From a virus (Duplodnaviria > Heunggongvirae > Uroviricota > Caudoviricetes): a stretch of 64,000 nucleotides of DNA. A program made the position numbers and the translations under genes. Location: IMG/VR virus record IMGVR_UViG_3300020578_005505; one strand, 5' to 3'. Shown piece by piece: positions 3,941 to 36,869 of this stretch (position 1 is its first letter; each line of letters opens with the position of its first letter). The notes under the pieces are model-generated. The model was not told the origin of the DNA and searched no databases. It was given only the letters and a program-made list of their open reading frames with translations.

Positions 3941-3941
3941 A

Positions 3942-7476: not shown

Positions 7477-7477
7477 T

Positions 7478-11280: not shown

Positions 11281-11287
11281 GTATAAG

Positions 11288-11360
11288 GTGACTATACTGG
11301 AATCGAACCAGTGGCACGGCCTGATTTAGGGCTTGCTCTAACCTTCTGAGCTAATAGTCA
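11288..11360 (-). tRNA. tRNA with atypical anticodon arm (anticodon ambiguous; possible 8-nt loop CTAAATCA)
   Basis: Acceptor TGACTAT/ATAGTCA, D stem GCTC/GAGC, T arm ACTGG-TTCGATT-CCAGT are all canonical. The anticodon stem AGCCC/GGCCG pairs only 3 of 5, leaving 3 bp with an 8-nt loop, or a mismatched stem around loop TAAATCA. Confidence 0.45.
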
Positions 11361-13098: not shown

Positions 13099-13269
13099 AA
13101 TACTTTATTTAACTATGTATCATTTTTGTTACCTTTTATAGGCCCGGTCTTTAATTTATTTGAAAAATTTCCTGTATATACACCAGTAGGTTGTACTACT
13201 ATAAAGGTGCTTAATGAAAAAGATATAGATGTAAGTAACGTTTTCATACTCTTTTACATCTATAAATAG

Positions 13270-17881: not shown

Positions 17882-17882
17882 T

Positions 17883-18254
17883 TTATGATACTTTACTGTT
17901 GTTGTATTTTTCAAAATCAGGATCAACTACTGTCTCTTTAAGAACTGATAAAACACTTAATTGTCCGCTTAATTTTGCGTAGACGTCTTGCTCTTTGCAA
18001 ATAAAATATTCTTCGCTTTCTACAGTGATTCTTAGAGAACCTAGTTTAGGGATAAGAACTTTGTCTCCTAATTCAAGATTTGAAAGTACTAGTTTATCAG
18101 AATTAAAATTATACGTAGCAGAGACAGCAATCACTTCTCCCATCTCAGGCCTCTCTTTTCCTAAATCTGGAATAACAATATTACCATACATTTGTTCCTC
18201 TTCTTCTATAGGTCTTAAAATTAAATACCCATTTAACGGTTGTAACTTCGACAT
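17883..18254 (-). CDS. groES: Co-chaperonin GroES (Cpn10)
   Basis: GroES-like N-terminus (LQPLNGYLILRPIEEEE...GNIVIPD...GEVIAV), directly upstream of groEL. Longer than usual at 123 aa. Confidence 0.65.
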   Translation of the reverse strand: MSKLQPLNGYLILRPIEEEEQMYGNIVIPDLGKERPEMGEVIAVSATYNFNSDKLVLSNLELGDKVLIPKLGSLRITVESEEYFICKEQDVYAKLSGQLSVLSVLKETVVDPDFEKYNNSKVS

Positions 18255-18274
18255 ACTTTTTATTTTAATTTAAT

Positions 18275-18463
18275 TTAAGAAATAATCTCCAAATCTTCAA
18301 CTGTTACTAAAAAATAAAGTAATCCTTCTTTCTTTAATATTGTATCGGCCTGAAGATACTCTTTCCAGACTTCTATTACGGGAAAATCATCTTCCTTAAT
18401 AATTTTTTTAATTAAAAAGAGTTTGCTATTAAATGGAATAAACTGCTTAGTAAGTGTAAACAT
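18275..18463 (-). CDS. Small hypothetical protein
   Basis: 62 aa ORF. Confidence 0.25.
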   Translation of the reverse strand: MFTLTKQFIPFNSKLFLIKKIIKEDDFPVIEVWKEYLQADTILKKEGLLYFLVTVEDLEIIS

Positions 18464-18488
18464 AACTGGTACTTAGTAGGCTACTTAT

Positions 18489-18926
18489 TTAATTCTCAAG
18501 AAAAGCTTTAGGTGTAGTAATAGAAATTTTTCGAGTAGCTTTACCTACAGCAATTGGTATATTTAAAGTCAAAAGACCTTTATCGAGAGATGCTTCAAGG
18601 TTACTTAAGTCGAACTTAGTTGAAATTTTCCAAGTAAGATCAAAACTTGATCTCTTAATACCCTTATAAATTGGATGATTTTCTTCCTGTTGTGCAGGTT
18701 TATCGTAACAAATTCTAAGAGAATCATTCTCAACAGAAATAAGAATATCCTCGACACTAAGGCCTACTGCGGCTATTTCAAAACGAATACCGCTTTTAGT
18801 TTCGAAAATATCAACAGGATGGGTTACTCTCTGCGTAATTGCAGAAAAATGTGCTTGTGCTTCTTTTAGGTCTTTCCATAGCAAGTCAAACGGATCGAGC
18901 TCGAACGCACGAAAAAGTGCTGTCAT
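18489..18926 (-). CDS. Small heat-shock protein (Hsp20/alpha-crystallin family)
   Basis: Alpha-crystallin domain pattern (DIFETKSGIRFEIAAVGLSVEDILISVENDSLRI...GLLTLNIP). Confidence 0.6.
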   Translation of the reverse strand: MTALFRAFELDPFDLLWKDLKEAQAHFSAITQRVTHPVDIFETKSGIRFEIAAVGLSVEDILISVENDSLRICYDKPAQQEENHPIYKGIKRSSFDLTWKISTKFDLSNLEASLDKGLLTLNIPIAVGKATRKISITTPKAFLEN

Positions 18927-21344: not shown

Positions 21345-22363
21345 TAAAAACCTTCTTGATTTTCTATCAATTTTTTTGCTTGATCGTAAGACATAGTTAA
21401 CTCTTTTTTTCTACCCCTAGACTCTCTAGCGATTTCGAGCTCTTGACATAAAGTAGTAAACGCTTTTAGGTCTTTCTGAAAGCAGTATAAGCCTGCAGTC
21501 TGTACAAGAGATTGAAATTTGCTGAAAGATAGAGTAGGGTCACCAGCTAACTTCTTACCGTTTTGATAGTACAATTTAAGTAGTTTTAAGTTAAGCTCCA
21601 ACTGCTTGAATTTGGGAGTTTGTAGGAGTTTCTTAGTTTCGTCGTAACTCCCTATAGTATAGTATGCGTTAAAACCTACGCCTACTAAGATTAATAATTC
21701 CAAAAATACAGTTATAAAGAAAAATGCTGTTGAATTCTCGCTACTTACGTCCAGCTTGCTAGCCGTTTTTTCTTTAGACTTATCCTCTATTTCGTTTAAT
21801 TTCGTCTCTTTACTTTTTTGCAGGGAAGCAACTATTGAATCCCTATATTGTCTATCTACCCTTGACTTAGAAGGCTGGGTTCTGTAATAATTAATCTCTT
21901 TATCGTAATATTTCGCAATAGAATCGGCTTTCAATGAAATACTAGTTTCAAGAGTGGTTTGAATAGTCTCTGAATCATCAATTAATCTATGAGCTCCTTT
22001 TATTGATAGGTAGAAGCTTCCTGCCATTAATCCCATAAAAATAACTGATCCTACAGCTATAGAATAAGTAAATTTTTTTATTTGCAAAATGCTAATTGAC
22101 AATTGTTCTAAGACAAACCTTTTAGTTAGTTCATAGCCAGTAAGGAAAAGTGCTACGAAAATAGCAAAAAAAGTATCCTGAAAAGGAAATAAAGGAGGGA
22201 TACTATCAGTAATTGACTTTACAAAAAAGTATCCAAAGTAAATAAGGAATATATTACCAAGAAAAGAAAAGTAGTAGAGTATTCTATCTAAAGTAAAATA
22301 GTTTTGCTCAAGCTTATGCACCTCAAGCTTTACTCTTAGCTTATTATATTTATCTATCTTCAT
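21344..22363 (-). CDS. Membrane protein of unknown function
   Basis: Several transmembrane helices in the N-terminal half. Its start overlaps the bS21 stop (ATGA). Confidence 0.35.
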   Translation of the reverse strand: MKIDKYNKLRVKLEVHKLEQNYFTLDRILYYFSFLGNIFLIYFGYFFVKSITDSIPPLFPFQDTFFAIFVALFLTGYELTKRFVLEQLSISILQIKKFTYSIAVGSVIFMGLMAGSFYLSIKGAHRLIDDSETIQTTLETSISLKADSIAKYYDKEINYYRTQPSKSRVDRQYRDSIVASLQKSKETKLNEIEDKSKEKTASKLDVSSENSTAFFFITVFLELLILVGVGFNAYYTIGSYDETKKLLQTPKFKQLELNLKLLKLYYQNGKKLAGDPTLSFSKFQSLVQTAGLYCFQKDLKAFTTLCQELEIARESRGRKKELTMSYDQAKKLIENQEGF

Positions 22364-22539
22364 TTTATTTTTTTAGACTCTACGTATCGAGCCTTTAAAA
22401 TTTCAGTTCTACGTTTAACTGAAGGTTTAATAAAGGTCTTTCTATCTCTTAATTCTTTTATTATTCCTATTTTATTATGTTTATTTTTATATTGCTTCAA
22501 AGCATGTTCAACTGAGCCATTTATATTTACTATTATCAT
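22360..22539 (-). CDS. rpsU: Ribosomal protein bS21 homolog; 59 aa, so below the ORF-track cutoff
   Basis: Manual translation MIIVNINGSVEHALKQYKNKHNKIGIIKELRDRKTFIKPSVKRRTEILKARYVESKKIK. Matches the bS21 pattern ALK(R)YK(R)K...G...ELR.R..F.KPS.KRR...K. Confidence 0.65.
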   Translation of the reverse strand: MIIVNINGSVEHALKQYKNKHNKIGIIKELRDRKTFIKPSVKRRTEILKARYVESKKIK

Positions 22540-23023: not shown

Positions 23024-23560
23024 TTACAGGGAAGATCGCTGCTTATCGTTTTGCCACTGACCGTTATATTCTTCAGCTGGAGTGCATTCGTGAAAATATA
23101 TTTGAGCTACACGAGCGTCTTTTTCGATAAAAATCGTTTGAGTTACTAACATAATTGTTCCTATATTTTCAGTCTCAAAACCAGGATCAAATACGGGCGA
23201 ATTAATTAAAGTACCGTTACGCCATAATGATGATCGTTGTTTAATAAAAGCTACACGATTATCTGGAATTCTACAGCCTTCCCAAAATGCAATATCATAT
23301 GTACCTGGATGCAAAAGCCATCCTTGAACTTCTTCAAGACGAATAGTTTCAACTGGAGTATAAGTAGTTAATTCAGTTTTATTCTTTAAAACTTTACCTA
23401 TCTTGAATTTTCTATATACAAGTTTTTCGTCGATTCCGTTTGGATCACCTACTCTATTTACCTCTTTAAGGGTTATATCATAACCAACTTGAGCTACTTT
23501 ACCTTTAGTATTATCTAACTTAAGTAATCCTTCTTCGAGGATTTGTTGTGCATTTAACAT
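23024..23560 (-). CDS. dCTP deaminase / dUTPase-superfamily protein
   Basis: VGYDITL, DPGFETENIGTIMLV and RVAQIYF resemble the Dcd motifs GYDLRL, DPGF.G and RIAQL.F. Confidence 0.55.
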   Translation of the reverse strand: MLNAQQILEEGLLKLDNTKGKVAQVGYDITLKEVNRVGDPNGIDEKLVYRKFKIGKVLKNKTELTTYTPVETIRLEEVQGWLLHPGTYDIAFWEGCRIPDNRVAFIKQRSSLWRNGTLINSPVFDPGFETENIGTIMLVTQTIFIEKDARVAQIYFHECTPAEEYNGQWQNDKQRSSL

Positions 23561-23569: not shown

Positions 23570-24280
23570 TTATTTCCTAGGGTAACCTTTAATAAACTCA
23601 TAAAATTCAGCTCGTGCAGCATCTTCTACTAAAAAGCATCCTGATAGCTTAGAGGTCTTCATATTAGCACCTTGATGCTTTACACCTCTACAGCTTACAC
23701 AGTTATGAGTTGCTTCAATCATTACTGCAACACCAATATTATCTTCGCAAATTTTATCTACAGCATTATGAATAGCTACAGTTAATTGTTCTTGAATTGA
23801 ACCTCTTCTACTAAAATGCTCTACAATTCGGTTAAGTTTACTTAGACCTACTACCCTACTTTTAAGGGTCGGCACGTAAGCGATATGACACAGGCCGTTA
23901 ATAGTCTGATGATGGTGACTACACATACTCGTAATAGGGATACCTCCTTCAAATACTACTCCGTCATAACCGTCAGCCGGAAAGCTAGTCACAGAATCTA
24001 GCTGCTCATATCTACCTTTCCATAAGTCGTTTACGTAGGCCTTAGCCACTCTCATAGGAGTATTCGAGCTATTAGGGTCGTTTTCCCAGTCAACTCCTAA
24101 AGCAGTTAGAAAATTGCCGTAATGTAAAGAAGCAGCTTCAATAATAAGCTTCTTTTCACCTTCAGTTAAACAATTTCTTCCTTCTTTAATTGCGTCTCGC
24201 AAAAAAGTACTAATACCGTTAGCATGGCCAGCTTGTGCAAGCTCTAGTTTTTCAATTTTAATATGTTTATCTCTACTCAT
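23570..24280 (-). CDS. folE: GTP cyclohydrolase I (FolE)
   Basis: CSHHHQTINGLCHIAYVP...VGLSKLNRIVEHFSRRGSIQEQLT, the conserved FolE core with the Cys/His zinc ligands. Confidence 0.8.
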   Translation of the reverse strand: MSRDKHIKIEKLELAQAGHANGISTFLRDAIKEGRNCLTEGEKKLIIEAASLHYGNFLTALGVDWENDPNSSNTPMRVAKAYVNDLWKGRYEQLDSVTSFPADGYDGVVFEGGIPITSMCSHHHQTINGLCHIAYVPTLKSRVVGLSKLNRIVEHFSRRGSIQEQLTVAIHNAVDKICEDNIGVAVMIEATHNCVSCRGVKHQGANMKTSKLSGCFLVEDAARAEFYEFIKGYPRK

Positions 24281-24283
24281 AAT

Positions 24284-24793
24284 TCAAAGATATAAGGATA
24301 TCGATTTTAAACGTTCTTCTACTGTACCTTTTAATATAACTACTTTTTCTTTAGGAATATAATTTATCATAAATTCTCTTATAACTTGATCTATTTTTAA
24401 TTGCAATTCTTGACTTAAGCGATCAGGATCGGCTTCAAAATCAAACTCAACAGGTATATAAAAAAAACGTTCTACTTGATCTTTAGTTTCTTCAAATAGA
24501 GTAATAAGGTTTTCAATATCAAGATTAGGGGCTAAAATTTGGGAGTAAATAATACAATCAACAATACTTCGAGTACTAATTACATTTTTATGTGTTAAGT
24601 AATTTTGATAAGCCCAAGCAGATAGTTCATTTATTACGTATTGCTTTTCATAACCTGATAATTCCAGCTGCTTGCCTATCTTAATAACAGGTCTTGAGAA
24701 ACCATCAGTAACATAATACCCGGGATAATTAGTAGCAACCTCTTTAAGTAAGGTAGTTTTTCCGGTCCCGTGAGATCCAAGTAATATTTTCAT
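24284..24793 (-). CDS. P-loop NTPase (kinase/ATPase-like) of unknown role
   Basis: Walker A GSHGTGKTTLL at the N-terminus. 169 aa. Embedded in the deazaguanine gene run. Confidence 0.4.
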   Translation of the reverse strand: MKILLGSHGTGKTTLLKEVATNYPGYYVTDGFSRPVIKIGKQLELSGYEKQYVINELSAWAYQNYLTHKNVISTRSIVDCIIYSQILAPNLDIENLITLFEETKDQVERFFYIPVEFDFEADPDRLSQELQLKIDQVIREFMINYIPKEKVVILKGTVEERLKSISLYL

Positions 24794-24821
24794 TTAAATA
24801 TTTTATATAATATATGAATAT

Positions 24822-25388
24822 TTACTGAAAGGTCCAAGTATTCTTAAAAAATTCTACCCAAGTAAGAAGAGACGTAGTCCGTAAAATAGAATATGCTTCG
24901 TCTACAGTTTTTGCGGTATTTTCGATACTAGCTGTTATTATAACTTCCCCTGAATCTAATTCCGGAATTACTTCGTGAATTACTGAGCCGCAAACGGGGT
25001 ACTTTTCATGATTTTTAACAATATCTTCTTGTTTATTAAAGCCTTTTAATTCAGGATAGCGAGTAATGAGTGCAGGATGACCGTTATAAATTTTGCCTTT
25101 GTATTCACTAAAAAACCCAGTAGGTAATATTCTCAAAAATCCATGTAAAGTAATTAGCTTTTTTTCAAGTAGTTCAGGAAAAAGATAATCTTTTAATACA
25201 GGCTTAAACGGTATTGTCTTTATTGTTACACTATTTTCTCCAAAGAATCTCAGGTTATCATCAGATATCTTACTTAATCTATTAGTAACAAGGAGACTAG
25301 GGAGAAACCCGGTTTCTTTAGCTATAGCAATAATCTCGGATCCGGTCTGAGATATTAGTATTCCCCAGTTTTCTTGAACTTTTATCAT
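24822..25388 (-). CDS. PurN/Fmt-like formyltransferase (candidate preQ1-DNA formyltransferase, DpdN-like)
   Basis: NGHPALI resembles the NxHPSLLP motif. GSVIHEVIPELDSGEVIIT carries the catalytic His and Asp region of formyltransferases. Overlaps queF by ATGA. Confidence 0.55.
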   Translation of the reverse strand: MIKVQENWGILISQTGSEIIAIAKETGFLPSLLVTNRLSKISDDNLRFFGENSVTIKTIPFKPVLKDYLFPELLEKKLITLHGFLRILPTGFFSEYKGKIYNGHPALITRYPELKGFNKQEDIVKNHEKYPVCGSVIHEVIPELDSGEVIITASIENTAKTVDEAYSILRTTSLLTWVEFFKNTWTFQ

Positions 25389-26302
25389 TGCCCCATTGCT
25401 TTTGTACTAAACATTCTAACGTTATTTAAAACGCTATTAAGAAGTCTTTCGTTTGAAACACGTACTGGACAGATATCTAAAGAACCTCTACGGGCATATA
25501 ATAACATTACGCTACAGTCTTCTACGTTAGGGTTCGACATAATTTCAGTAAATAACTTCTCGGCACAGAATTCATGAAATTCGTTTACCTCGCGTAAGGA
25601 AATAACAAGCTTTAGCAGTTCTAATTTATTTACAACACCTTGCTTAGTTTTAATAGCAAAGTAAGCAGCTCCAGTATCTTTTTGCTTTGTATGTCGACAT
25701 CTAGATCTTAGAATATTAGTAAAGTACATATACATATTAGGACCACTACCTTCTTTAGTTACTACATTATACTTTCCTTGTCCTTTATAATCAGCAATTT
25801 CCATAGACTCTAATTCTTGGGAGTTTATTTCAGTAAACAAGTCACTATAACCACGGCCTGGATCTTGATTCAATCTAGTATCGTCTCCTGATCTAAAGAA
25901 GCCTACTCTCACTTCAGCTCCAATTGCTTTACTGATATCTTTTTTTACCTGTTTTTCGTAATTGTCGATAGCTTCTTCTAAAGTATCTCCCATCTTACAC
26001 ATATCAAAGGTATTCAAATAGAGTTTAAAAGATTTAGATTCTACCATGAATTCTGAATTTGCAGGGCAGATAACTTTTAAGGTACCTGCTACTGGAAGTC
26101 CATTGCTAAGTAGAAAAGTAGCTTCGTGACAATGCCAAGTATCAAAGCCTACAAATTCATCTCCTTTAATACCCCAATCTTGACGTGCAAGAATACGTGG
26201 CATAGGATTTAACTGTGAAGGATCAAATGTATCTGTATAAACAGCATAGGAATTAGCCGAACCAAGGGTTTTAGAGGCTACATCGGTCATATTACTTAAC
26301 AT
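25385..26302 (-). CDS. queF: NADPH-dependent 7-cyano-7-deazaguanine reductase (QueF, preQ0 to preQ1)
   Basis: VESKSFKLYLNTF, the QueF signature E(S/L)K(S/A)hK(L/Y)(Y/F/W). Confidence 0.7.
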   Translation of the reverse strand: MLSNMTDVASKTLGSANSYAVYTDTFDPSQLNPMPRILARQDWGIKGDEFVGFDTWHCHEATFLLSNGLPVAGTLKVICPANSEFMVESKSFKLYLNTFDMCKMGDTLEEAIDNYEKQVKKDISKAIGAEVRVGFFRSGDDTRLNQDPGRGYSDLFTEINSQELESMEIADYKGQGKYNVVTKEGSGPNMYMYFTNILRSRCRHTKQKDTGAAYFAIKTKQGVVNKLELLKLVISLREVNEFHEFCAEKLFTEIMSNPNVEDCSVMLLYARRGSLDICPVRVSNERLLNSVLNNVRMFSTKAMGQ

Positions 26303-27071
26303 AGGAGCGGAAGGTTTTTACGTTTTCGAAAATTAAATTTATTTGTTCTTCTTTTAGCTTAATATCTAAATTATCAGCTAATTTATCTTTTGGTTTAGAG
26401 GATGTAAGTCCGTTAGGTCCTAATCTATTACCGGACCAGCCGTTGACGATTGGTGAGCTAGTATCAAGAGAATAAATGTAGCGTTGCAAATGACTTTGAT
26501 TATACCTATAGAGTTGAAACTCTACAGGGTTTTGACATCCTAAAAGATGAAACCTATAGGAACCTCCAAAAAACTTATACCTACTGGCATACCACCAATT
26601 CAAAAACCTAAACCGTACAGTTACATGATCAGAATCAGGTACTAGATCGAAAGGCAAGGCAATAATATCAATATCTTTTTCAACATAAAAATCGATACAA
26701 TCAGCAATTTGCTCAAAAGTATCTCCTTGACATACCCCGATATACTTTAAATTATCGGATTTATATTTACCTAAGTACTCTACTGCATTTGCAATAGTTT
26801 GCCTGTAGTCGTTAACCTTATCAGGTAATACAAGGTGGCTAGGTCTAAATTCTTCTCCTAGTTCGTACAACTCTTCCCCGGATATTGATTGACCTAATTC
26901 AAATGCAGAATTATCGAGAATAGAATAAGAGGCTTCTTTAAGCTTCTTTTTATAAAACTCAGTATAACCTCTATCGTTATTTAGTAAATGCCCTAGTACA
27001 TAAGGGTAGTCACTGATTAGGTCATGATAAGGAAATAACTGTTTAGGTATTTCGTGACTTATTTTTGTCAT
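26292..27071 (-). CDS. Putative DpdA-like (tRNA-guanine transglycosylase-fold) DNA 7-deazaguanine transglycosylase
   Basis: 259 aa between queC and queF, with Asp-containing LDNSAFE and LDTSSP segments reminiscent of the TGT fold. Context-driven assignment. Confidence 0.4.
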   Translation of the reverse strand: MTKISHEIPKQLFPYHDLISDYPYVLGHLLNNDRGYTEFYKKKLKEASYSILDNSAFELGQSISGEELYELGEEFRPSHLVLPDKVNDYRQTIANAVEYLGKYKSDNLKYIGVCQGDTFEQIADCIDFYVEKDIDIIALPFDLVPDSDHVTVRFRFLNWWYASRYKFFGGSYRFHLLGCQNPVEFQLYRYNQSHLQRYIYSLDTSSPIVNGWSGNRLGPNGLTSSKPKDKLADNLDIKLKEEQINLIFENVKTFRSYVK

Positions 27072-27958
27072 ATGTTTACTTTTTTATGTTCTAATAATAC
27101 TTGCTCAACATGTGCTCTAGCTACTTCCCAACTTACAGGCCCGTTTTCATCAGCATATTCTACAGGATCGGGACGATCTAGTTTAATAAATGCTTCAATA
27201 CGTTCTACTGATGCAGCTGATTTATAATCTGAATACCATTTAAATGCGTAGGTCTCTGGACGGTAATAATGCTTAATTGGTTTATATGAAGTATTAGTAC
27301 GCTTGTATACTTCGTTAAAGTCTAAGCCTAATTCTTCACAGCAGTCTTCACCATCTACCAGGATATCGTACTTATTCATTTCAAGATAGGGAGTGTAGAC
27401 GCTGACTAACTCTGAATTCCAATTGCCGATTCTAAATGCTTCCATATCAGCGTCTCTAAATTCTTGACGGCAATCCGGATAGATGTCATGATCGCCCGCA
27501 TGCACACCTAATGCAATCATAACATTCTGTCCTATAGTGCAATCATCAGTTATTGGCCTGGTAGCAATAGATAAAGCTACTGCCTGTATAATTGAACTAA
27601 AGATCTTATTCCGGTTAGGAACTACTGTCTCTTTCATATTCTCTTGTTGATAGTGGCCCTCCGGTACATCTTGTCCGCCTTCAACTAATGCTGAATTAAG
27701 TAGTTCTTGTAATCCTTTTAATTTAATAGTTTGATGTGTTACAAAATAAGGATAATCTACTGTTTTAGATTCTTCGTCTACAACACAATATGAATTGATG
27801 TACTTTACTAATGATTGAGCACGCTCTAATTCAACACGATGTTTTTGTCCATAATCAAAAGATAGAGCTGTTACTTCGTAACCGTTAGCTAATAAATGAA
27901 GAAGTAATGACGAAGAATCCATCCCGCCACTAAGTGAAAGCACAACTTGTTTTTTCAT
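27068..27958 (-). CDS. queC: 7-cyano-7-deazaguanine synthase (QueC-like PP-loop ATPase)
   Basis: PP-loop VLSLSGGMDSSSLL (SGGxDS) at the N-terminus. Longer C-terminal region than the bacterial enzyme. Confidence 0.65.
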   Translation of the reverse strand: MKKQVVLSLSGGMDSSSLLLHLLANGYEVTALSFDYGQKHRVELERAQSLVKYINSYCVVDEESKTVDYPYFVTHQTIKLKGLQELLNSALVEGGQDVPEGHYQQENMKETVVPNRNKIFSSIIQAVALSIATRPITDDCTIGQNVMIALGVHAGDHDIYPDCRQEFRDADMEAFRIGNWNSELVSVYTPYLEMNKYDILVDGEDCCEELGLDFNEVYKRTNTSYKPIKHYYRPETYAFKWYSDYKSAASVERIEAFIKLDRPDPVEYADENGPVSWEVARAHVEQVLLEHKKVNI

Positions 27959-28009
27959 CTGTTAAAAATTTAAATAAAGAGCGTATTATTTTATTATCCG
28001 ATTAGCTCC

Positions 28010-28222
28010 TTAACCGGCTTTTTTATCTTCTTTACTACCGAGATCTTTCTGAATAGAAATTATTTGATTGGTAACACCAGATACTAAGGTACCTAATTGC
28101 TCCCAAATCCTGTCACATTCGTTCTGCAGTTTTTTAATTGCTACCCATTGAATTACTTGTAAAACAATTAAAAGTACTATTATACCTATATAAATTGTTT
28201 CTTTTGTTAAAGTTATTGTCAT
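28010..28222 (-). CDS. Small membrane protein
   Basis: Single transmembrane helix, 70 aa. Confidence 0.3.
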   Translation of the reverse strand: MTITLTKETIYIGIIVLLIVLQVIQWVAIKKLQNECDRIWEQLGTLVSGVTNQIISIQKDLGSKEDKKAG

Positions 28223-28233
28223 CTTTTAATATA

Positions 28234-28491
28234 CTAATTTTCTACTGAGTCTTCAAAATCTCCACGCATAAATTCGTAAGCTTCAGGCGTTCCAGGAAAG
28301 GCTATAAAATCGGGACGCTCCATAACTCTCTTTAAAATCTTTATTGTAAGATCTCTGTCCTTAGTGTCTATGACTAAGGGTTCGAAAACAAATTCAGATT
28401 CTACATCATTTTTATAAGTCAGATAGTATAGGCTACCGGCACCGACGTGCTTAATTGCTTCGTAAAAACTTTCAGCTGTTGTCTTTTTCAT
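28234..28491 (-). CDS. Hypothetical protein
   Basis: 85 aa ORF. Confidence 0.3.
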   Translation of the reverse strand: MKKTTAESFYEAIKHVGAGSLYYLTYKNDVESEFVFEPLVIDTKDRDLTIKILKRVMERPDFIAFPGTPEAYEFMRGDFEDSVEN

Positions 28492-29419
28492 ATAACGAAT
28501 TTATATATTCTTTTAAACGATCTACAGGCTGCCATCCTAGACGCTCAATAGCGTCGTTATTTAGTCTAATAGTTTCACGGTAATTTCCCTTTTGCTCAGA
28601 TATTAATATTTTTTCGCATTTAAACTTTTTAATAAACATATCTGCTACCTCATTGATCGAATAATTTTTACCTGTACCAAGCTCCCAAGCATCCTCATGC
28701 TTTTCATTCGATTCGGCTACTCTAATCAATCCGTCTACAATATCATCTATATAGGTAAAGTCACGGCGTTGTTCTCCGTCACCTATAATTGTTATAGGAT
28801 TATTTTTTCTAATTTGTGCTCTCCAAACTCCAATGACTGCAGCCATATGCGAATCTACTAATTCGCCTCTTCCATATACGTTATAGAATCTGACTATCTC
28901 TGCATTTAAACCATATACTCCTTTAAGCATCTTAATCCATTCTTCTCCCATATGTTTTGTTAATGCATAAGGAGAAATCAACGGATCATGGTGTCTTGAA
29001 GACGATCCTGCATATATTAACTTAGCATTAGCTTTTTTTGCATATCGAGCTACTTCTACTGTTCCGACTGTATTGATTGAGATTGTTAGCTGCTCAGCCT
29101 TAAATGATGGTTGTATTCTACTTAATGCTGCTAAATGAAATATATACTTATACTCTTTTAAAGGTATATTTTCCATTGCTCTCACATCACCTCCTAAAAA
29201 GCTTGAACCTTTAGCTATTTTTGCTTCTCTACCAATATAAAAGTTATCGATAATATCTACTTCGTAACCCCTGCGCAATAAGTCTTTTGTTAAAGCATAG
29301 CCAATAAATCCACATCCGCCTGTTACAAGTACTTTTCTATTTACCATACCCCTACCGCTCTTTTTAGTAATCCACTTATACATAAAGTTAGCATCTAGAG
29401 TTGGTTGTGTAGCTATCAT
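28472..29419 (-). CDS. NAD-dependent nucleotide-sugar epimerase/dehydratase (SDR family)
   Basis: VLVTGGCGFIGYAL Rossmann motif and a YxxxK-type catalytic region. 315 aa. Confidence 0.7.
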   Translation of the reverse strand: MIATQPTLDANFMYKWITKKSGRGMVNRKVLVTGGCGFIGYALTKDLLRRGYEVDIIDNFYIGREAKIAKGSSFLGGDVRAMENIPLKEYKYIFHLAALSRIQPSFKAEQLTISINTVGTVEVARYAKKANAKLIYAGSSSRHHDPLISPYALTKHMGEEWIKMLKGVYGLNAEIVRFYNVYGRGELVDSHMAAVIGVWRAQIRKNNPITIIGDGEQRRDFTYIDDIVDGLIRVAESNEKHEDAWELGTGKNYSINEVADMFIKKFKCEKILISEQKGNYRETIRLNNDAIERLGWQPVDRLKEYINSLYEKDNS

Positions 29420-29420
29420 T

Positions 29421-29756
29421 TTAATTAAAAGTATCCCAAAATAATTTTCTAACCTTTGCTCCTAACTCTTGATCATTAGGTGTAGATTTAACTGTATGAA
29501 ATGATACTAAAAAATGTTTTAAGTGATCATTTGGTGGATCAATAGGTTCTATTAACTTATTGCAAACTTGGGGTTGATAGCAACCTTGTCCTGCTCCTTC
29601 TACATATCCATACCTTAGATCAATATGAGTTGATCTTGTATAAGGTGTCTTTTTACCACATATCAAACACTCATCATAGTTATCATCGTTAACTGATCCT
29701 ACAGCTATAACATAGCCTTTATCATCAATTTTAAGAGGTACGTGTTGTTGTCCCAT
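29421..29756 (-). CDS. Cys-containing hypothetical protein
   Basis: CLICGKK...C...C. The C-terminus shares PNDQELGAKVRKLF with ORF 10204-10515. Confidence 0.3.
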   Translation of the reverse strand: MGQQHVPLKIDDKGYVIAVGSVNDDNYDECLICGKKTPYTRSTHIDLRYGYVEGAGQGCYQPQVCNKLIEPIDPPNDHLKHFLVSFHTVKSTPNDQELGAKVRKLFWDTFN

Positions 29757-29922
29757 ATTATAAAGAATTTAAAAGTTCTTTAATTCTCTCTTCTAATACA
29801 TTGACTGTAGTGCGAAGATGACCTGTATCAGTAGGTTCAAATCTTGATCTTAATACTTGTATCTCAGCAAGTAAAAATTCAATATGTTGTTTTTTGTCTT
29901 TAATTTCCATTTCGTAAAATTT

Positions 29923-30129
29923 TTAATTTATTACAATTATTTCTCCGGGATTATGAGCTGGAGTGTGATATTTAAATTTATGTTTATCTAATATATTTAT
30001 AGTTAGTTTTTTCATTCTTTCAGAATATCCTGTTATTATTCTAAACGGAGTATTATTTATTAAAATAAAATTTTCAACTAAATCTTGTAAATCATAACGG
30101 GATATACCATGAAGATCTAACTCTTTCAT
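29923..30129 (-). CDS. Hypothetical protein
   Basis: 68 aa ORF. Confidence 0.3.
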   Translation of the reverse strand: MKELDLHGISRYDLQDLVENFILINNTPFRIITGYSERMKKLTINILDKHKFKYHTPAHNPGEIIVIN

Positions 30130-30700
30130 AAATCCTTAGTTTGATTGAAAACATCTACGATCATATAAATCATAAGAGCAGATATTCCAATAATAAAAAT
30201 TAAAAATATAATATCATCCATTTATTGTTTTTTACTATTAATAAAATTTATTAAGCTTAACATTGTTGGGGGCCATAAACCAATAAATATTGCTTTATGT
30301 GGTTCATTTTGAACTAAGTAAATATATTCAGTAACGAAAATACAAGCTATAGTTACTATAAGAATAAGAAGTTCACTAGTGCTGAATTTTTTCATGTTTT
30401 ATTTTTTTATAGAGTTATTAATATCTTCTATTGTTATTAATGTAAGGTAGGATAGTATTATAATTATAAAAAATTTTGATAATCCAATTCCTATCATAAT
30501 TTTAATTTTTATCAATTAATGTATCAACTAATACATAACCAAAGAACATAAAGCCTATTGGTAAACTAATCTCAAAACCTATTCCTACTGATAATCCTAG
30601 TCCAATAATTAATTTAATTGCTTTTAAAGCATCACTAATAATTCGTTTTGACCAGAAACTATAATAGTTTTTCATATTATACATTTAATGTTATTTTATA
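30130..30700 (-). other. Cluster of four or more tiny hydrophobic single-TM peptide genes (about 30-60 aa each)
   Basis: Manual minus-strand translation gives MDDIIFLIFIIGISALMIYMIVDVFNQTKDL (stop overlapping the next ATG), MKKFSTSELLILIVTIACIFVTEYIYLVQNEPHKAIFIGLWPPTMLSLINFIN..., MIGIGLSKFFIIIILSYLTLITIEDINNSIKK, plus the 60-aa track ORF 30502-30684. Confidence 0.45.
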
Positions 30701-30883
30701 ACTAGCATCAAATACTTCTTCCCAAAACGGCTTTTCTTCTGTTCCATAATTCTCATATACCTTTCCATCTAAACCTAGTACTATTGTTCCCGGTCCAAAA
30801 TTATTACCTTGTATAAAATTATTTTCATTAAATATACATTTTCTTTCTACTGTTTCTTCATCAAATATTACTGTTATTTTCAT
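30677..30883 (-). CDS. Hypothetical protein
   Basis: 68 aa ORF. Confidence 0.3.
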   Translation of the reverse strand: MKITVIFDEETVERKCIFNENNFIQGNNFGPGTIVLGLDGKVYENYGTEEKPFWEEVFDASYKITLNV

Positions 30884-30884
30884 A

Positions 30885-31721
30885 TTATACGTTTAATGTT
30901 TTATTCCAAGCGGCAATATGTAAACGTGTTAATCCTCTGAATCTATACTTCTTAGCCATCTCTAAACAGAATTGAGTACGCTCTTCAAAATCCTTAACAT
31001 CATCTAAACCAGGCATACACACTACATTTTTAAGTGGTATATCTAACGGTTTAACAAAATCTTCAAATATTTCTATAACATCATTTTCAGTACTAATAAC
31101 AAATTTAAACTGGTAATTACTATGTTCCATAATACGTCTAAGACCAGCTTCAACAAAACGTTGCTTTTTAGTCATACCTGAATTAGCTAGTTTAGGTGAG
31201 CAGTTAATTTGATCTAAAATATTAAAGAGATCTTCTTCAATAACTACAGTGCCATTTGTTTCAACTTCATTAAAGACTTTGTAGTTTTCAAAGTTTTCTA
31301 TAGTACTCCAATACTTAAAGAAGTTAGTTATAGCTTCCTGATGACCTTTAATTGTAGGCTCACCACCAGTCCAAATGATATGTATATTACCGTTTTTAAT
31401 ATCGTCATATACGCCTTGTCCTTTCCATCTATTAATTAAATACTGGAACTCTTTTTCTTCTCCTCTCCATAACCACTGACTTGTAGAATCACAAGTCCAA
31501 GTTGCTTTACCTTCTTTAACTAAATCACCTTCAAATATTTCTCCATCTTCTAATGATGCTTCTTTTGCTAAATTATTAGCAAATGCTCTACTCATGCCGC
31601 AGGTTAGATTACATATACCTAAACGGACAAAGTATGAAGGTACACCTGATGATATACCTTCACCTTGGATAGAGTAAAAGTCACTAGAAATTAATAGTTT
31701 ATGCGGATCGATTTTGCTCAT
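30885..31721 (-). CDS. queE: 7-carboxy-7-deazaguanine synthase (QueE, radical SAM)
   Basis: YSIQGEGISSGVPSYFVRLGICNLTC and WTGGEPT, the QueE N-terminal signature and cluster-binding region. Confidence 0.65.
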   Translation of the reverse strand: MSKIDPHKLLISSDFYSIQGEGISSGVPSYFVRLGICNLTCGMSRAFANNLAKEASLEDGEIFEGDLVKEGKATWTCDSTSQWLWRGEEKEFQYLINRWKGQGVYDDIKNGNIHIIWTGGEPTIKGHQEAITNFFKYWSTIENFENYKVFNEVETNGTVVIEEDLFNILDQINCSPKLANSGMTKKQRFVEAGLRRIMEHSNYQFKFVISTENDVIEIFEDFVKPLDIPLKNVVCMPGLDDVKDFEERTQFCLEMAKKYRFRGLTRLHIAAWNKTLNV

Positions 31722-32263
31722 ACGCTTTCGTTTACTGGAATTATTTTAGACTGGTGTGTTGCATCTTGAATTATACGTATAGAACTGGCAATTTGTAGAT
31801 CAGTTAATGTAACTTTTTCTACTTTGATTCCCCATTTTTTTACAAACTTTCCTACCTCAAAGGTTAACTTTTTATCAATTTCAATAATATTAACCCACTC
31901 CGTATCTTCTATAATATCTCGAATCATTCCCCCGGTAGTATCAGTAAGGACGTCTTGGGGCTGGGTTATAGTTAGCAGAAAAGTTTTTATGTCAACTATT
32001 GTAAATCGAATAATACCTTTTACTACTACATTTTTGTTATCGGCAGTAGTTATCGATTGAGGGGGTATATCGATTGACTGTGTAATTGTTGCATGTTTCC
32101 AAACAGAATCAAAGAATGGCATTTTAAAATATAGTCCTGGTTTGACTGTTTTAATATATTTTCCATTACGTAATACAATAGCCTCCTCCCATTCATCAAT
32201 AATGAATACAGGCCACAGTTCGTATATGAACTGCTGTATAAGGGATATTAATTTATCAAACAT
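31718..32263 (-). CDS. SPFH/Band-7 (stomatin/prohibitin-like) domain protein
   Basis: GLYFKMPFFDSV...QSIDIPPQSITTADNKNVVVKGIIRF...WGIKVEKVTLTDLQI fits the SPFH domain pattern. Confidence 0.5.
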   Translation of the reverse strand: MFDKLISLIQQFIYELWPVFIIDEWEEAIVLRNGKYIKTVKPGLYFKMPFFDSVWKHATITQSIDIPPQSITTADNKNVVVKGIIRFTIVDIKTFLLTITQPQDVLTDTTGGMIRDIIEDTEWVNIIEIDKKLTFEVGKFVKKWGIKVEKVTLTDLQIASSIRIIQDATHQSKIIPVNESV

Positions 32264-32613
32264 TATTGACGTTGCTTCGCTTTAAGCTTTTTGCGCTTAA
32301 GAGCCTTCTCGCTAATAGTCTGCCCTTTTTTTCCCATCTCTACCTCATATTTTTCAGTTTTACGGCTAACAGCTTTCCATTCAGACTTAGGAATAAACTT
32401 CCAAATACTACCGACCTTAGCATCGGCTTGACGATCGTCTACTCGTTGGATATCACCAGTATTGATATTTTTAATGCACTTCATAGGTTTTAACCTCCAT
32501 GTTTTAATATAATTAAATATATGATTAATCTGCGGATATTCCAAAAAAATACCTAAAATAGTTGGATGCTGTTCTCCGCAAAGACCGAGGGAGTGTATAA
32601 CTGATTCAAACAT
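32263..32613 (-). CDS. Hypothetical protein
   Basis: 116 aa ORF. Confidence 0.3.
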   Translation of the reverse strand: MFESVIHSLGLCGEQHPTILGIFLEYPQINHIFNYIKTWRLKPMKCIKNINTGDIQRVDDRQADAKVGSIWKFIPKSEWKAVSRKTEKYEVEMGKKGQTISEKALKRKKLKAKQRQ

Positions 32614-32617
32614 TTTT

Positions 32618-32884
32618 TTATTTATAAGATTGTAGTTTCATTTTTAATCTATTGATCATAATTTGACAATACCATTTTCCCATATTACTAGAAGCATTTT
32701 TGTATTTTTTTTCCCACTCTACTATCTTACGCATGATAGGCACATTAGCTTTATTCTTAATATCATTATAGTAGTAACAGTTATTTTCTAACATAGCTTC
32801 TTCCAAATTTCCTTCACTGCACGGAGGAGGTTGCTGTACCATAAGTTCCTTACCTTCGGCTTTTTTAGATTTTTTTATAGGCAT
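32618..32884 (-). CDS. Hypothetical protein
   Basis: 88 aa ORF. Confidence 0.3.
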   Translation of the reverse strand: MPIKKSKKAEGKELMVQQPPPCSEGNLEEAMLENNCYYYNDIKNKANVPIMRKIVEWEKKYKNASSNMGKWYCQIMINRLKMKLQSYK

Positions 32885-32893
32885 ATAGCTAGT

Positions 32894-33358
32894 TTATTCG
32901 AAATAAGATGCTGAATTTTTATTGTTCTCCATAAATTCTACTTTTACTACTCTAACTCTACCGCTAGATTCTTCTTGAACAAATCTATTAACCCTCTCGA
33001 AAATAAATTTCGCAAACTGTTCGGCGCCGACTGTTGGAAGTATCCTTAGTTGGATAATCCCCTCTTTATCCATATTATGAAAATAAGAACGATATGGATC
33101 ATCTTCAGCTATAACAGTTGTATGATCAAACATATAATCCATCCATTCTTTAGGCTTCATACCATCAATATTACCTTTAGCACGCTTCATACCTCCAAAA
33201 TCCCAAACCCAATTGCGTTCATCTAGTTCACCCTCAAACCATACTCTGAATGATACTCCATAGCCATGCAAAAAGCGGCAATGGGTCGCGTCTGCTTTCC
33301 ATTGACGAAATACGCAGCTATATCCGTCAAATAACTTAGTTGATTGGAATATAGTCAT
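32894..33358 (-). CDS. queD: 6-carboxy-5,6,7,8-tetrahydropterin synthase (QueD)
   Basis: CRFLHGYGVSF, the CxxxHGH zinc/catalytic motif of QueD/PTPS. 154 aa. Confidence 0.7.
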   Translation of the reverse strand: MTIFQSTKLFDGYSCVFRQWKADATHCRFLHGYGVSFRVWFEGELDERNWVWDFGGMKRAKGNIDGMKPKEWMDYMFDHTTVIAEDDPYRSYFHNMDKEGIIQLRILPTVGAEQFAKFIFERVNRFVQEESSGRVRVVKVEFMENNKNSASYFE

Positions 33359-33378: not shown

Positions 33379-33576
<198 letters not shown>

Positions 33577-33585: not shown

Positions 33586-35925
33586 TTAGATTCCAAGGCT
33601 TGCTGTTACCCATCCGGTTACACTGTTTCCTGTATAGATCCATAGCTCGTTAGCGGCAGGATTAACATACATACTACCGGTAGCTGGATTTGCATCTGTT
33701 TGAGCAGGTACTATAAAGCTTCCAGTCACGATGAAAGAACCGGTTACTGTTAGAGGGCCGCCAACTATACCTACGGATCCGCTAATTATATGGCTATCTG
33801 TGAGGCTAGTACCTAACGATACCGCGTTTTTAGATAGAATGCTTCCTGAAACTGTTAATACGTGGTCTCTTCCATTTTGTTGTGAATAAGTGTAGTTGGT
33901 ACTGCCGTCTTCGAGAGAAAAGTTGTTACTTATGATAGTATAGATCGGAATTTTTCCTTCGCCAGCTCCAAAAGATCCTCCAATTAGAGTATCTGCTTGT
34001 TGCCTTACGAGTTTAATTGCACCGGCGGGGATATTTCCTGCAGCATTTGGTACTGCGTGTCCTATATTAGTATCGTTATAATAAAAAGTATATCCTAGCG
34101 TGCTTGCAGTACTAAGATAAACGTCTCCGCGGAGAATAGTACCAAAAGCAGGTACTTGTGTTCCGCCAAACTTAATACTTGCCCAGTTAGTTCCTACTAC
34201 TGAATTGCCTTGAATGTAATCAGTGCCTATTATCGAGCCGGTTACTGTTAGTCCGTTTGCATAGTTACCGCTTCCGCTTACGTCTAATGTATATTGAGGT
34301 AGTGATTTATTGATGCCTACCTTTGCTTGAGTCATTGATCCAGAGAAGCCAGTATTATTAATGTCTCCATAAGAGCCGGTTGCAAAAATTACACCACCTA
34401 TATTTATAGAATCTTTTCTATTATTTTGCAGGGTTATACCGGTTCCGATAATAATATTGTTAGTACCTATCTGATTTTCTCCCGGATTTCCTGGGAATAA
34501 ATATCCAGCTCTATACCCTATTATTGTAGAGTAAGAAGCAGTACTAGCTTGATTCCCTGCAAACTGTCCGATAAAGGTTGAATTAGAAGCAGAAACGGCT
34601 GCATATCCTGCATTCTCACCAACAAAGAAAGAGCCTTCAGCTTCTCTTGCTCCTGATCCAGCAGAAGTACCTAGGAATGTTGCTCCGGCAGCATTTGTAG
34701 CTTCGTTTCCTGCATTAGCACCTATGAAAATAGAGGTTTGAGCATTAGTAGCAAAATGGCCTGCTTGATATCCTATAAAAGTAGAATTGCTAGCGTTAGT
34801 TGCTCCTTGACCTGCCGAGTTACCTAGGAAGTTAGATAGATGAGCAGAGGTCGCATTAACTCCTGCATTTGGTCCTATGAAGTTAGAATTATAAGCATTA
34901 GTAGAGCCGGATCCTGCAAACTCGCCTAAAAAGTTTGAGTGATTTGCCCCGTTTGCTCCATATCCAGCCTGGTTGCCTAAGAAGTTGGAATCGGTGGCAG
35001 TAGTGGCTTGAAAACCTGCCGAGTTACCTAGGAAGTTGGAATCGGTGGCATTAGTGGCTTGAAAACCTGCCGAGTTACCTAGGAAGTTAGAGTGATTAGC
35101 ATTGGTCGCATCAACTCCTGCCGAGTTACCTAGGAAGTTAGATTGATTAGCATTGGTCGCATTATTTCCTGCATTTGTTCCAATGAAACTTGAAAAACTT
35201 GCGGTTGCTGCTCCTGCTCCTGCGTTTAATCCAATAAAATTTGAATTATTGGCTTCTCCTGCATTTTGACCGGCATTAGTACCGATAAAATTTGAGAACT
35301 GTGCGTTGGTAGCTGTATATCCTGCTGCATTGCCGATCATCACAGAGTTACCGGCTCCTGGTACAATATACCCTGCTACATCCCCAATAAACACCGAAGA
35401 CGAAGCGTTAGTAGAGTTTTGACCGGTTCCGTTATTTCCAATAGCTACAGTTCTAATTGCATTAGTAGCAGATTGTCCGGCTGCATATCCTATAAAAATA
35501 CCTTGGCCAGCATTACTGTTACCTGCTCCTGCAGCTACTCCTATAGCTACCATATTATCTGATCCGTTACTACCGTTACCGGCATTGAGCCCTAAAAATA
35601 TACCGTCTGTAGTATCGAACGCAGTTGTAGGAGGGATCGTTGAATATATTGAAGATCCGCTACTTGATACTGCAAGTACTACGTTAGCTCCTGGTGCATA
35701 CGATGCTGATACGGCAAACGAGCTGCTTACTGCAAAAGAAGCTGATACAGCATTCAATACGAAGCTAGCCGTTTGTGCAGTTATAGACGATGTTACTTGT
35801 GGTAACGAGTTTGCTAGATTCGTTATAGATAATTTCGAAGTCGTAGCTGTAGCTACTACAGGTAACACATCAGTACTTGTTACTGAAGTAACTGCAGGAA
35901 GTTGGGATATTCTTACGTTTGCCAT
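33586..35925 (-). CDS. Gly/Asn/Ala-rich repetitive tail fiber or fibrous virion protein
   Basis: 779 aa. The central region is built from about 17-aa repeats (NFLGNSAGFQATNATDS...) and the DNA shows perfect 51-bp periodicity. N- and C-terminal domains are unique. Confidence 0.55.
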   Translation of the reverse strand: MANVRISQLPAVTSVTSTDVLPVVATATTSKLSITNLANSLPQVTSSITAQTASFVLNAVSASFAVSSSFAVSASYAPGANVVLAVSSSGSSIYSTIPPTTAFDTTDGIFLGLNAGNGSNGSDNMVAIGVAAGAGNSNAGQGIFIGYAAGQSATNAIRTVAIGNNGTGQNSTNASSSVFIGDVAGYIVPGAGNSVMIGNAAGYTATNAQFSNFIGTNAGQNAGEANNSNFIGLNAGAGAATASFSSFIGTNAGNNATNANQSNFLGNSAGVDATNANHSNFLGNSAGFQATNATDSNFLGNSAGFQATTATDSNFLGNQAGYGANGANHSNFLGEFAGSGSTNAYNSNFIGPNAGVNATSAHLSNFLGNSAGQGATNASNSTFIGYQAGHFATNAQTSIFIGANAGNEATNAAGATFLGTSAGSGAREAEGSFFVGENAGYAAVSASNSTFIGQFAGNQASTASYSTIIGYRAGYLFPGNPGENQIGTNNIIIGTGITLQNNRKDSINIGGVIFATGSYGDINNTGFSGSMTQAKVGINKSLPQYTLDVSGSGNYANGLTVTGSIIGTDYIQGNSVVGTNWASIKFGGTQVPAFGTILRGDVYLSTASTLGYTFYYNDTNIGHAVPNAAGNIPAGAIKLVRQQADTLIGGSFGAGEGKIPIYTIISNNFSLEDGSTNYTYSQQNGRDHVLTVSGSILSKNAVSLGTSLTDSHIISGSVGIVGGPLTVTGSFIVTGSFIVPAQTDANPATGSMYVNPAANELWIYTGNSVTGWVTASLGI
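34930..35190 (-). repeat. In-frame 51-bp tandem repeats within the tail-fiber gene
   Basis: gaagttggaatcggtggca recurs at 34981 and 35032. aggaagttag recurs at 35081 and 35132. Units are near-identical. Confidence 0.7.
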
Positions 35926-36269: not shown

Positions 36270-36869
36270 TTATTTAACCCATGTTCTTTGATTATAGTGA
36301 TAAGCGAGGCTACAGTTTTGATCATCGTAGATCTGACTGCTATCAAAAAATTTAACATCATCTCTACTTAAACACCACTCAGTAAGTGCGTATACGCTGA
36401 ATGGTTCAGCCTGATCTTCTCTTAAATTAGTACGAGCTAAACAATACTCTATATATTTTTTAGTTAATCCAGGTCTAGCTAAGATAACATAATCATCTAA
36501 AAGATATATCTTTTTAGGGGGGGTGTAAGAATAGTAGCTATTCCTTCGGACGAAAATTAAATTACAATTATCAAAAAGACTATAAACTGAATCGAAATTC
36601 GCTTTCCATTCTATATCAAAATCACAGCAGATACCGCCTTTATAATTTAATACTAAATACTTTGCAAGCTGTAGCTTATGGAAAACCGTAGAGGATAAAA
36701 ATAAATTGCTAAACTCTCCAAGAATCGGGATCAACTTATCCTCAGTCCAGATTTCGAAATTGTATCCTGTATTCGATTCTTTAGCTCTATTATAATTCTT
36801 AATAAAACGTTCAGGAATATCTTTATCGCCAACCCATATATAATGTACAAAATTATTATACGATTTCAC
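36270..36869 (-). CDS. Putative glycosyltransferase (GT32/DXD sugar-binding region-like)
   Basis: N-terminal HYIWVGDKDIPE resembles the Gly_transf_sug motif. DxD-like CDFD. Confidence 0.4.
   Translation of the reverse strand: MKSYNNFVHYIWVGDKDIPERFIKNYNRAKESNTGYNFEIWTEDKLIPILGEFSNLFLSSTVFHKLQLAKYLVLNYKGGICCDFDIEWKANFDSVYSLFDNCNLIFVRRNSYYSYTPPKKIYLLDDYVILARPGLTKKYIEYCLARTNLREDQAEPFSVYALTEWCLSRDDVKFFDSSQIYDDQNCSLAYHYNQRTWVK

Follow-up and report, generated by a model that had tools for sequence, protein, structure and literature searches.

A divergent member of the DpdA3- and DpdN-type 7-deazaguanine DNA-modification system in an uncultivated tailed phage, with a conserved kinase-fold partner

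Introduction

The stretch of tailed-phage DNA analyzed here (IMG/VR record IMGVR_UViG_3300020578_005505, Caudoviricetes; the whole stretch of 64,000 nt is called the window) carries at 23570-33358, on the minus strand, what appears to be a gene module for replacing guanine in DNA by a 7-deazaguanine. Judged from its genes, the module probably (at roughly 0.8) belongs to the type in which the transglycosylase DpdA3 is combined with the formyltransferase DpdN, and it is predicted to yield 2'-deoxy-7-(formylamino)methyl-7-deazaguanosine (fdPreQ1). All eight enzymes and proteins of this type are present and the catalytic residues of the enzymes are kept; the product, the order of base exchange and formylation, and the role of a kinase-fold neighbor are inferred.

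The system is known from the Flavobacterium phage immuto (Cui, Hutinet et al., NAR 2023; PMC10516641). Mass spectrometry of immuto DNA found no deoxyguanosine (dG) and 345,000 fdPreQ1 per 10^6 nucleotides, and the DNA is resistant to restriction enzymes whose sites contain G (PMC10516641). A neighboring PF00551 protein was named DpdN as a predicted preQ1 or dPreQ1 formyltransferase, and DpdA3 and DpdN were proposed as the enzymes, with insertion into finished DNA being concluded from homology alone (PMC10516641). Complete replacement of G has been reported for DpdA3 phages, including CP220 and phiST, whereas replacement by other DpdA subfamilies is partial, at 0.1-30% (PMC10516641; statements on the CP220 literature are taken via this paper throughout).

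The window is a new, divergent member of this system. A preliminary description of the sequence had interpreted the genes as making a formyl-preQ1 DNA base; the gene homologies support that interpretation, but the base and its gene set, published in 2023, are not a new kind of modification. Identity to the immuto proteins is 71% for FolE, 70% for QueD, 63% for QueC, 55% for PolA, 36% for DpdN, 35% for QueF and 34% for DpdA3. At the DNA level, immuto queD alone (74%) was matched among 50,697 phage records, and the window is therefore a distant relative rather than the same phage.

Gene content of the module

All of the open reading frames (ORFs) named in the preliminary description were located on the minus strand of the window, as was every gene between 19 and 36 kb (ORF listing). 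The module and its immediate neighbor are as follows (aa, amino acids; TGT, tRNA-guanine transglycosylase).

23024..23560, minus strand: dCTP deaminase/dUTPase-family protein, a syntenic neighbor and possible accessory (PF22769, E 6e-15)
23570..24280, minus strand: FolE, GTP cyclohydrolase I, GTP to dihydroneopterin triphosphate (PF01227, E 6e-44; 71% to immuto FolE)
24284..24793, minus strand: P-loop protein, 169 aa, nucleoside/nucleotide-kinase fold (AAA_28, E 1.5e-9; PHROG 'thymidylate kinase')
24822..25388, minus strand: DpdN-like formyltransferase of the PurN family, 188 aa (Formyl_trans_N, 38.5 bits; 36% to DpdN)
25385..26302, minus strand: QueF, two-domain NADPH-dependent preQ0 reductase, preQ0 to preQ1 (QueF_N and QueF)
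26292..27071, minus strand: guanine transglycosylase of the DpdA3 subfamily, 259 aa (homology to phage DpdA3; TGT/DpdA fold)
27068..27958, minus strand: QueC, preQ0 synthase (PF06508, E 3.5e-36; 63% to immuto QueC)
30885..31721, minus strand: QueE, radical-SAM 7-carboxy-7-deazaguanine synthase (PHROG QueE-like radical SAM, E 1.3e-36, full length)
32894..33358, minus strand: QueD, 6-carboxytetrahydropterin synthase (PTPS, E 1.8e-14; 70% to immuto QueD)

The preQ0 pathway is complete: FolE, QueD, QueE and QueC were all identified by family matches in Pfam, NCBIfam and PHROG, in agreement with the preliminary description, and queF and the gene for the formyltransferase do overlap by ATGA, as it reported. 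Its assignment of QueF also holds. The Pfam models QueF_N and QueF are both matched above cutoff, and Vibrio cholerae QueF (3bp1), aligned at E 4.5e-33, shares with the window protein the motifs ESKSFKLYLN and EFHE, the catalytic Cys that forms the thioimide and the subsequent Asp; the score against the NCBIfam equivalog is 175.7, below the cutoff of 293. QueE gave no match in Pfam and weak matches to the NCBIfam QueE models. Its cluster motif, C-x3-C-x35-C, is an unusual radical-SAM variant, in which C37, C41 and C77 are invariant in 35/35 orthologues. Immuto QueE, which is 24% identical, has C-x3-C-x8-C instead, the insert between the second and third cluster Cys being 27 residues longer in the window.

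The same eight homologous functions (FolE, QueD, QueE, QueC, QueF, DpdA3, a DpdN-type formyltransferase and an AAA_28-type P-loop protein) occur in immuto, likewise in a neighborhood beside DNA polymerase A and GroES/GroEL. However, the order differs, being QueC-DpdA3-QueF-formyltransferase-kinase-FolE in the window and FolE-MazG-like-DpdA3-DpdN-kinase-QueF in immuto, with immuto QueC 10 kb off. Unlike immuto, the window module has no phosphoribosyltransferase, and its dCTP deaminase/dUTPase-family gene stands at the position of the immuto MazG-like (PRA-PH) hydrolase.

This last gene is a possible accessory and is not counted as a proven part of the module. Its product scores 84.5 bits against the archaeal-type dUTPase model of NCBIfam, under the cutoff, and its best PDB match is 9w59, a probable dUTPase. 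Among 32 relatives with both flanks, the gene is found in 14 and a MazG-like protein takes its place in 12. A role as a dGTPase was considered and dropped, given these dUTPase matches and the presence of the gene in just 14/32 loci. The NAD-dependent epimerase gene at 28472-29419 was also dropped as a part of the module, as it is a variable insert found in few relatives.

Gene order in relatives

Relatives were collected by a DpdA3 profile search of IMG/VR, which gave 527 confirmed relatives, of which 80 loci were kept and their ORFs labeled by phmmer (below, L-numbers denote loci and P-numbers proteins of the DpdA3 family). The preliminary description had regarded the split layout, with queE and queD several kilobases away, as unusual. 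This was not borne out: the gene order of the window recurs in L002-L007 and in the majority of the 80 IMG/VR loci, lake-metagenome relatives among them and on contigs as long as 190 kb, and is the norm for the clade. The order runs QueD, small ORFs, QueE, small ORFs, in some loci an epimerase, and QueC, followed by DpdA3, QueF, the formyltransferase, the AAA_28 protein, FolE, a DCD-like protein, DNA polymerase A, HSP20, GroES and GroEL. The clade resembling immuto has the order phosphoribosyltransferase, FolE, MazG-like protein, DpdA3, DpdN, P-loop protein and QueF; a phosphoribosyltransferase is present in 13 of the 32 fully flanked loci. Where at least 3.5 kb was available downstream of DpdA3 (54 loci), QueF was found in every case (54/54), the P-loop protein in 52 and the formyltransferase in 50.

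The formyltransferase and its slot

The 188-aa protein scores well above the Formyl_trans_N cutoff of 26.1 bits and is homologous over its full length to DpdN (YP_010114479.1; 36% over 183 residues, E 1e-26). The preliminary description had made a catalytic Asn, His and Asp the test of this ORF, and these were found: when the protein is aligned with Escherichia coli PurN, DpdN and homologues from the environment, its N102, H104 and D145 fall opposite N106, H108 and D144 of PurN. In addition, the N-terminal SQTGSE loop aligns with the SGNGSN loop of PurN, which we take to bind the phosphate of glycinamide ribonucleotide. Both the triad and the loop were independently confirmed by HMMER alignments to the PDB PurN chains 3kcq and 1c3e. 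At E <= 1e-5 the protein has 373 clusters of homologues, which come from metagenomes throughout and for the most part show 55-99% identity; across the family the triad and the folate-binding core (LHGFLRI, NGHP and D145) are invariant, and they are common to PurN. The protein is predicted to N-formylate the aminomethyl group of preQ1 or dPreQ1.

The slot of this gene is variable among the relatives. A GNAT acetyltransferase replaces the formyltransferase between queF and the kinase gene in L065 (7752-8135, plus strand), with the same arrangement in L067, and in L063 (7708-8205, plus strand); the L065/L067 protein scores 48.7 bits against Acetyltransf_1 and that of L063 25.7 bits against Acetyltransf_10, both above cutoff. 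L088, which is without DpdN, encodes a kinase-GNAT fusion (6123-7079, plus strand), the C-terminal domain of the kinase resembling the GNAT of L063 (36% identity, E 4e-21), and L064 has neither acyltransferase. Furthermore, P0475 (447 aa) is a natural fusion of DpdA3 with a Formyl_trans_N domain, and P0459 (419 aa) is a DpdA3 with a weak GNAT-like C-terminus. The GNATs in this slot and the fusions therefore support acylation of the preQ1 amine by the formyltransferase. By the same gene content, an N-acetyl-dPreQ1 base would be predicted for the L063 and L065/L067 types, together with plain dPreQ1 variants in relatives.

In both NCBIfam and the PDB the best match of the 188-aa protein is PurN, whose catalytic triad it shares, and some phages (for example an Acinetobacter phage) have purN-like genes without deazaguanine genes; the module could then end at dPreQ1, with an ordinary glycinamide ribonucleotide transformylase merely located in the cluster. 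We consider this improbable. The score against the PurN equivalog (TIGR00639) is 53.3 bits, compared with a cutoff of 150.1, and just residues 75-160 match. The protein is closer to DpdN than to the next phage matches, which are PurN-like proteins at 25% identity, and its gene is fixed between queF and the kinase gene in 50/54 loci, in a slot that GNAT acyltransferases also take; in P0475 the domain is joined to DpdA3 itself. A stop at dPreQ1 is also at odds with immuto DNA, which has fdPreQ1 and no dPreQ1 (PMC10516641).

A 7-deazaguanine with a one-carbon or acyl decoration other than formyl, through another donor or position in this divergent clade, is a shade less probable again: identity to DpdN is just 36% and the slot is chemically flexible in relatives, but the triad and folate-binding core are invariant and shared with PurN. 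A formyl group on the aminomethyl nitrogen remains the preferred reading.

The transglycosylase

The 259-aa ORF gave no match in Pfam or NCBIfam, or by phmmer against the PDB, and was identified through homology to phage DpdA3, the family profile and the predicted fold only. Its homologues are the DpdA3 of immuto (34%, full length), of Campylobacter phage CP220 and its kin (33%, 98% coverage) and of Cellulophaga phage phiST (about 25%). An AlphaFold model calculated from 31 homologues has a predicted local distance difference test score (pLDDT) of 93.6 and a predicted template-modeling score (pTM) of 0.91. The top four fold matches of this model in the PDB are tRNA-guanine transglycosylases (2ash and 5i07) and the DNA preQ0 insertase DpdA (7ui4), with E 3e-7 to 9e-7 and TM 0.63-0.65, and generic TIM barrels rank behind them with E above 2e-4. 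The TGT fold that the preliminary description had set as a check on this ORF was thus found. The family profile (the family comprises 4861 cluster representatives at E <= 1e-3 in public metagenomes) also has 7ui4 as its best match among PDB sequences (E 0.0035), in an alignment that pairs HLLGcqnP with HLLGIARP and SiDtssP with SIDSTTP.

In an alignment of the window, immuto, CP220, phiST, Bacillus and environmental members, residues D53, N54, D84, T92, R153, H175, G178, S201, D203 and N250 are invariant. No Cys is invariant in this alignment and the zinc site of Tgt is therefore absent. With neither a match to the Tgt model (PF01702) nor a zinc Cys/His site, the likeness of the 259-aa protein to Tgt is one of fold only. 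One member of the family, P0373, contains an intein with a LAGLIDADG endonuclease directly after the conserved LDNS motif. Inteins typically insert at functionally critical conserved sites, and the position of this one therefore marks the LDNS motif as functionally critical. The isoelectric point was tried as a proxy for DNA binding and was uninformative, as DpdA3 proteins have values of 4.7-6.1 compared with 5.6 for the DNA-acting DpdA1 of phage 9g.

The protein resembles those of the bacterial Dpd system (DpdA with the ATPase DpdB) and of phage DpdA1 and DpdA2 (9g and CAjan) in being a DNA-guanine transglycosylase of TGT fold that is fed by the preQ0 pathway. However, it is much shorter (259 versus 436 aa) and has no conserved zinc-site Cys. 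That the genes serve queuosine or tRNA metabolism, boosting host or phage tRNA modification or supplying preQ1, is very improbable: the phage does carry tRNA and tmRNA genes, but the absence of a Tgt match and of conserved zinc-site Cys, the grouping with DpdA3 of phages with fully modified DNA and the DNA-guanine transglycosylase 7ui4 as best PDB sequence match all argue against it.

Several points weigh against assigning an fdPreQ1-forming function to the module. Its DpdA3, DpdN and QueF are just 34-36% identical to the immuto proteins, such that their specificity could differ. The formyltransferase lies far under the PurN equivalog cutoff and is divergent in its N-terminal half. In the reference system, the activity of DpdN was itself called predicted, and the authors could not reconstitute DpdA3 in E. 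coli (PMC10516641).

The kinase-fold partner of DpdA3

The preliminary description had seen the 169-aa P-loop protein as inserted in the middle of the cluster. It is instead a conserved partner of DpdA3, as shown by its presence in 52/54 loci and by the kinase that adjoins DpdA3 in nine lineages. Its Walker A motif is GSHGTGKT. Every top PDB match of its AlphaFold model (pLDDT 87.4) is a nucleoside or nucleotide kinase, with TMq 0.6-0.72; the matches comprise dTMP kinases, deoxyadenosine kinase, UMP-CMP kinase and the nicotinamide-riboside kinase domain of NadR (best TM, 0.72). In sequence it is 25% identical over 117 aa to immuto gp203 (annotated 'thymidylate kinase'), 26.5% identical over 181 aa (E 2e-6) to CP220 gp057, which is also an AAA_28 protein, and 28% identical to a 'thymidylate kinase' of CC_R7; between CP220 gp057 and immuto gp203 the identity is 32% (E 2e-18).

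A Walker-A kinase directly adjoins the DpdA3-like gene in 9/9 lineages examined, which are as follows.

Window clade; immuto clade; CP220; CC_R7; Bacillus phage BSTP12; Weizmannia phage Youna2; Aeromonas phage Ahp1
phiST: the adjacent kinase is an AAA_18 protein
Vibrio phage D479: the adjacent kinase is annotated as a deoxynucleoside monophosphate kinase

These kinases belong to at least three families without mutual matches. CP220 (dADG, Firehammervirus) and phiST (dDG) share with the window the DpdA3 homologue and the directly adjoining small P-loop kinase, but they have neither QueF nor a formyltransferase and their final bases are different; CP220 adds an HD-phosphohydrolase/kinase fusion and phiST a MazG-like pyrophosphatase. 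The kinase is kept in loci that lack the formyltransferase (L064, L065/L067 and L088) and in phages with dADG or dDG as their final base, and it therefore tracks DpdA3 and not the decoration. No small kinase adjoins the DpdA1 locus of phage 9g, in which replacement is partial. Among the best 150 of the 4861 DpdA3-family representatives, no DpdA3-kinase fusion was found, the longer proteins there being the DpdA3-formyltransferase fusion, the weak DpdA3-GNAT fusion, the intein-containing DpdA3 and proteins with homing-endonuclease tails.

The AAA_28 kinase family extends beyond DpdA3 phages, to 89 records of Streptomyces phages and to six phages of Bacteroides, in which a profile search found that the neighbors of the kinase are not DpdA3. 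In the Streptomyces phages (about 133 kb; LukeCage, L096:4210-5621, and 88 further records), the kinase gene lies directly downstream of, and overlaps, a gene for an FkbM-like methyltransferase, a pair that may represent another kinase-linked nucleotide modification.

Most likely, the kinase-fold protein of the window phosphorylates a nucleoside or nucleotide intermediate or returns recycled guanine to GTP. The main text of PMC10516641 makes no mention of a kinase, P-loop protein or ATPase.

Proposed mechanism

In the proposed pathway, FolE would convert GTP to dihydroneopterin triphosphate, QueD would convert this to 6-carboxytetrahydropterin, QueE would form 7-carboxy-7-deazaguanine and QueC would form preQ0, which QueF would reduce to preQ1 with NADPH. 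This route from GTP to preQ1 is standard, and its prediction here is supported by family membership and catalytic residues. DpdA3, a small enzyme of TGT fold that lacks a zinc site, would then exchange guanine for the deazaguanine, and the DpdN homologue would formylate the exocyclic aminomethyl nitrogen, the donor being, by analogy with PurN, N10-formyl-tetrahydrofolate. The resulting DNA would be uncuttable for G-dependent restriction enzymes.

DpdA3 systems, including that of the window, may build the modified guanine at the nucleoside or nucleotide level and not purely after replication; we hold this tentatively, at somewhat less than even odds. In this scheme deoxyguanosine, as nucleoside or nucleotide, would be the substrate of base exchange by DpdA3. 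The product would be acylated by the formyltransferase, whose place a GNAT takes in some relatives, and phosphorylated towards the triphosphate by the adjacent kinase. The phage polymerase would then incorporate it, while neighbors of the MazG, HD or dUTPase families would putatively deplete the competing nucleotide. Such a route would explain why complete replacement is seen only with DpdA3, and likewise why DpdA3 alone failed in E. coli.

A comparable logic is found in phages that replace a base in the nucleotide pool before replication, such as T4 (dCTPase gp56, dCMP hydroxymethylase gp42 and dNMP kinase gp1) and S-2L (DatZ and MazZ). The DpdA3 loci resemble these pathways in combining a base-modifying enzyme with a dedicated nucleotide kinase and often a gene of the dNTP (pyro)phosphohydrolase type. 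The adjoining kinase in nine lineages, its kinase fold, the kinase-GNAT fusion of L088 and the phosphate loop kept from PurN may all speak for a nucleotide-level step. The same may hold for the PRA-PH (immuto gp208), HD (CP220 gp055), MazG (phiST) or dUTPase-family neighbors, for complete replacement being specific to DpdA3, for the lack of a kinase at the 9g DpdA1 locus and for the free ADG nucleoside found in cells infected with CP220 (relayed in PMC10516641).

However, a nucleotide-level step meets three objections. The kinase family is also present in the Streptomyces and Bacteroides phages without DpdA3. To our knowledge, every characterized DpdA or TGT acts on a polynucleotide, and we know of no TGT-fold member that acts on mononucleotides. 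Finally, the kinase is accounted for just as well by recycling of the released guanine, from G through GMP and GDP to GTP for use by FolE, a role that could pair with the phosphoribosyltransferase of the 13/32 fully flanked loci.

Other features of the window

Directly upstream of queD, a small Cys-rich DUF5522 protein is encoded at 33379-33570 (minus strand); L002 and L004 have it at the same place, between queD and the gene for class II ribonucleotide reductase. The adjacent gene at 33586-35925 (minus strand) encodes a 779-aa protein with many degenerate repeats of the NSNFLGNSAG type and lies in the stretch of highest G+C content in the window (0.416). It has no Pfam match and is missing at this position in L002 and L004. 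GroEL, GroES and HSP20 are encoded beside the DNA polymerase at 16259-18926 (minus strand), and an A-type iron-sulfur carrier at 11916-12239 (minus strand); relatives additionally carry NifU. These iron-sulfur genes might serve the radical-SAM enzyme QueE.

A phage tmRNA gene lies at 13267-13677 (minus strand; Rfam RF00023, 56.2 bits against a gathering score of 47), for which ARAGORN gives the tag peptide AEEYAYAA. ARAGORN also places a tRNA-Met at 11287-11360 (minus strand) beside a tRNA-like gene with a four-base anticodon (aaat) at 11207-11280 (minus strand), of which Rfam confirms the tRNA-Met only. Ribosomal protein S21 is encoded at 22360-22539 (minus strand; PF01165, E 7e-13) and is kept in L006 and L007. 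At 40440-41837 (minus strand) there is a 5'-3' exonuclease with an N-terminal pyrimidine-dimer DNA glycosylase domain (PF03013, E 4.5e-13).

The sugar-modification repertoire of the window is large for a phage. At 1173-8923 (minus strand) lies a series of genes for glycosyltransferases (GT11, two of GT2, and others of GT1-like or Glyco_trans_1_2 type), and an NAD-dependent sugar epimerase/dehydratase (the epimerase considered above), a glycosyltransferase-like ORF with a DXD motif and a sugar C-methyltransferase are found at 28472-29419, 36270-36869 and 62102-63352, respectively.

Conclusions

To the only known formyl-dPreQ1 DNA system, the window contributes a divergent member that belongs to a clade both abundant and uncultivated. 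In the relatives the acyl decoration appears to be interchangeable, being provided by a formyltransferase, by a GNAT or by neither, and the predicted N-acetyl-dPreQ1 would be a further DNA base, absent from the descriptions in the 2023 paper. The main text of that paper (PMC10516641) is also without discussion of the near-universal kinase partner, the interchangeable decoration or the fusions that link DpdA3, acyltransferase and kinase. The features most worth following are the conserved kinase beside DpdA3 and the acyltransferases that take the place of DpdN. Together with the fusions, the kinase partner and the variable decoration make it testable how DpdA3 phages reach 100% replacement of guanine.

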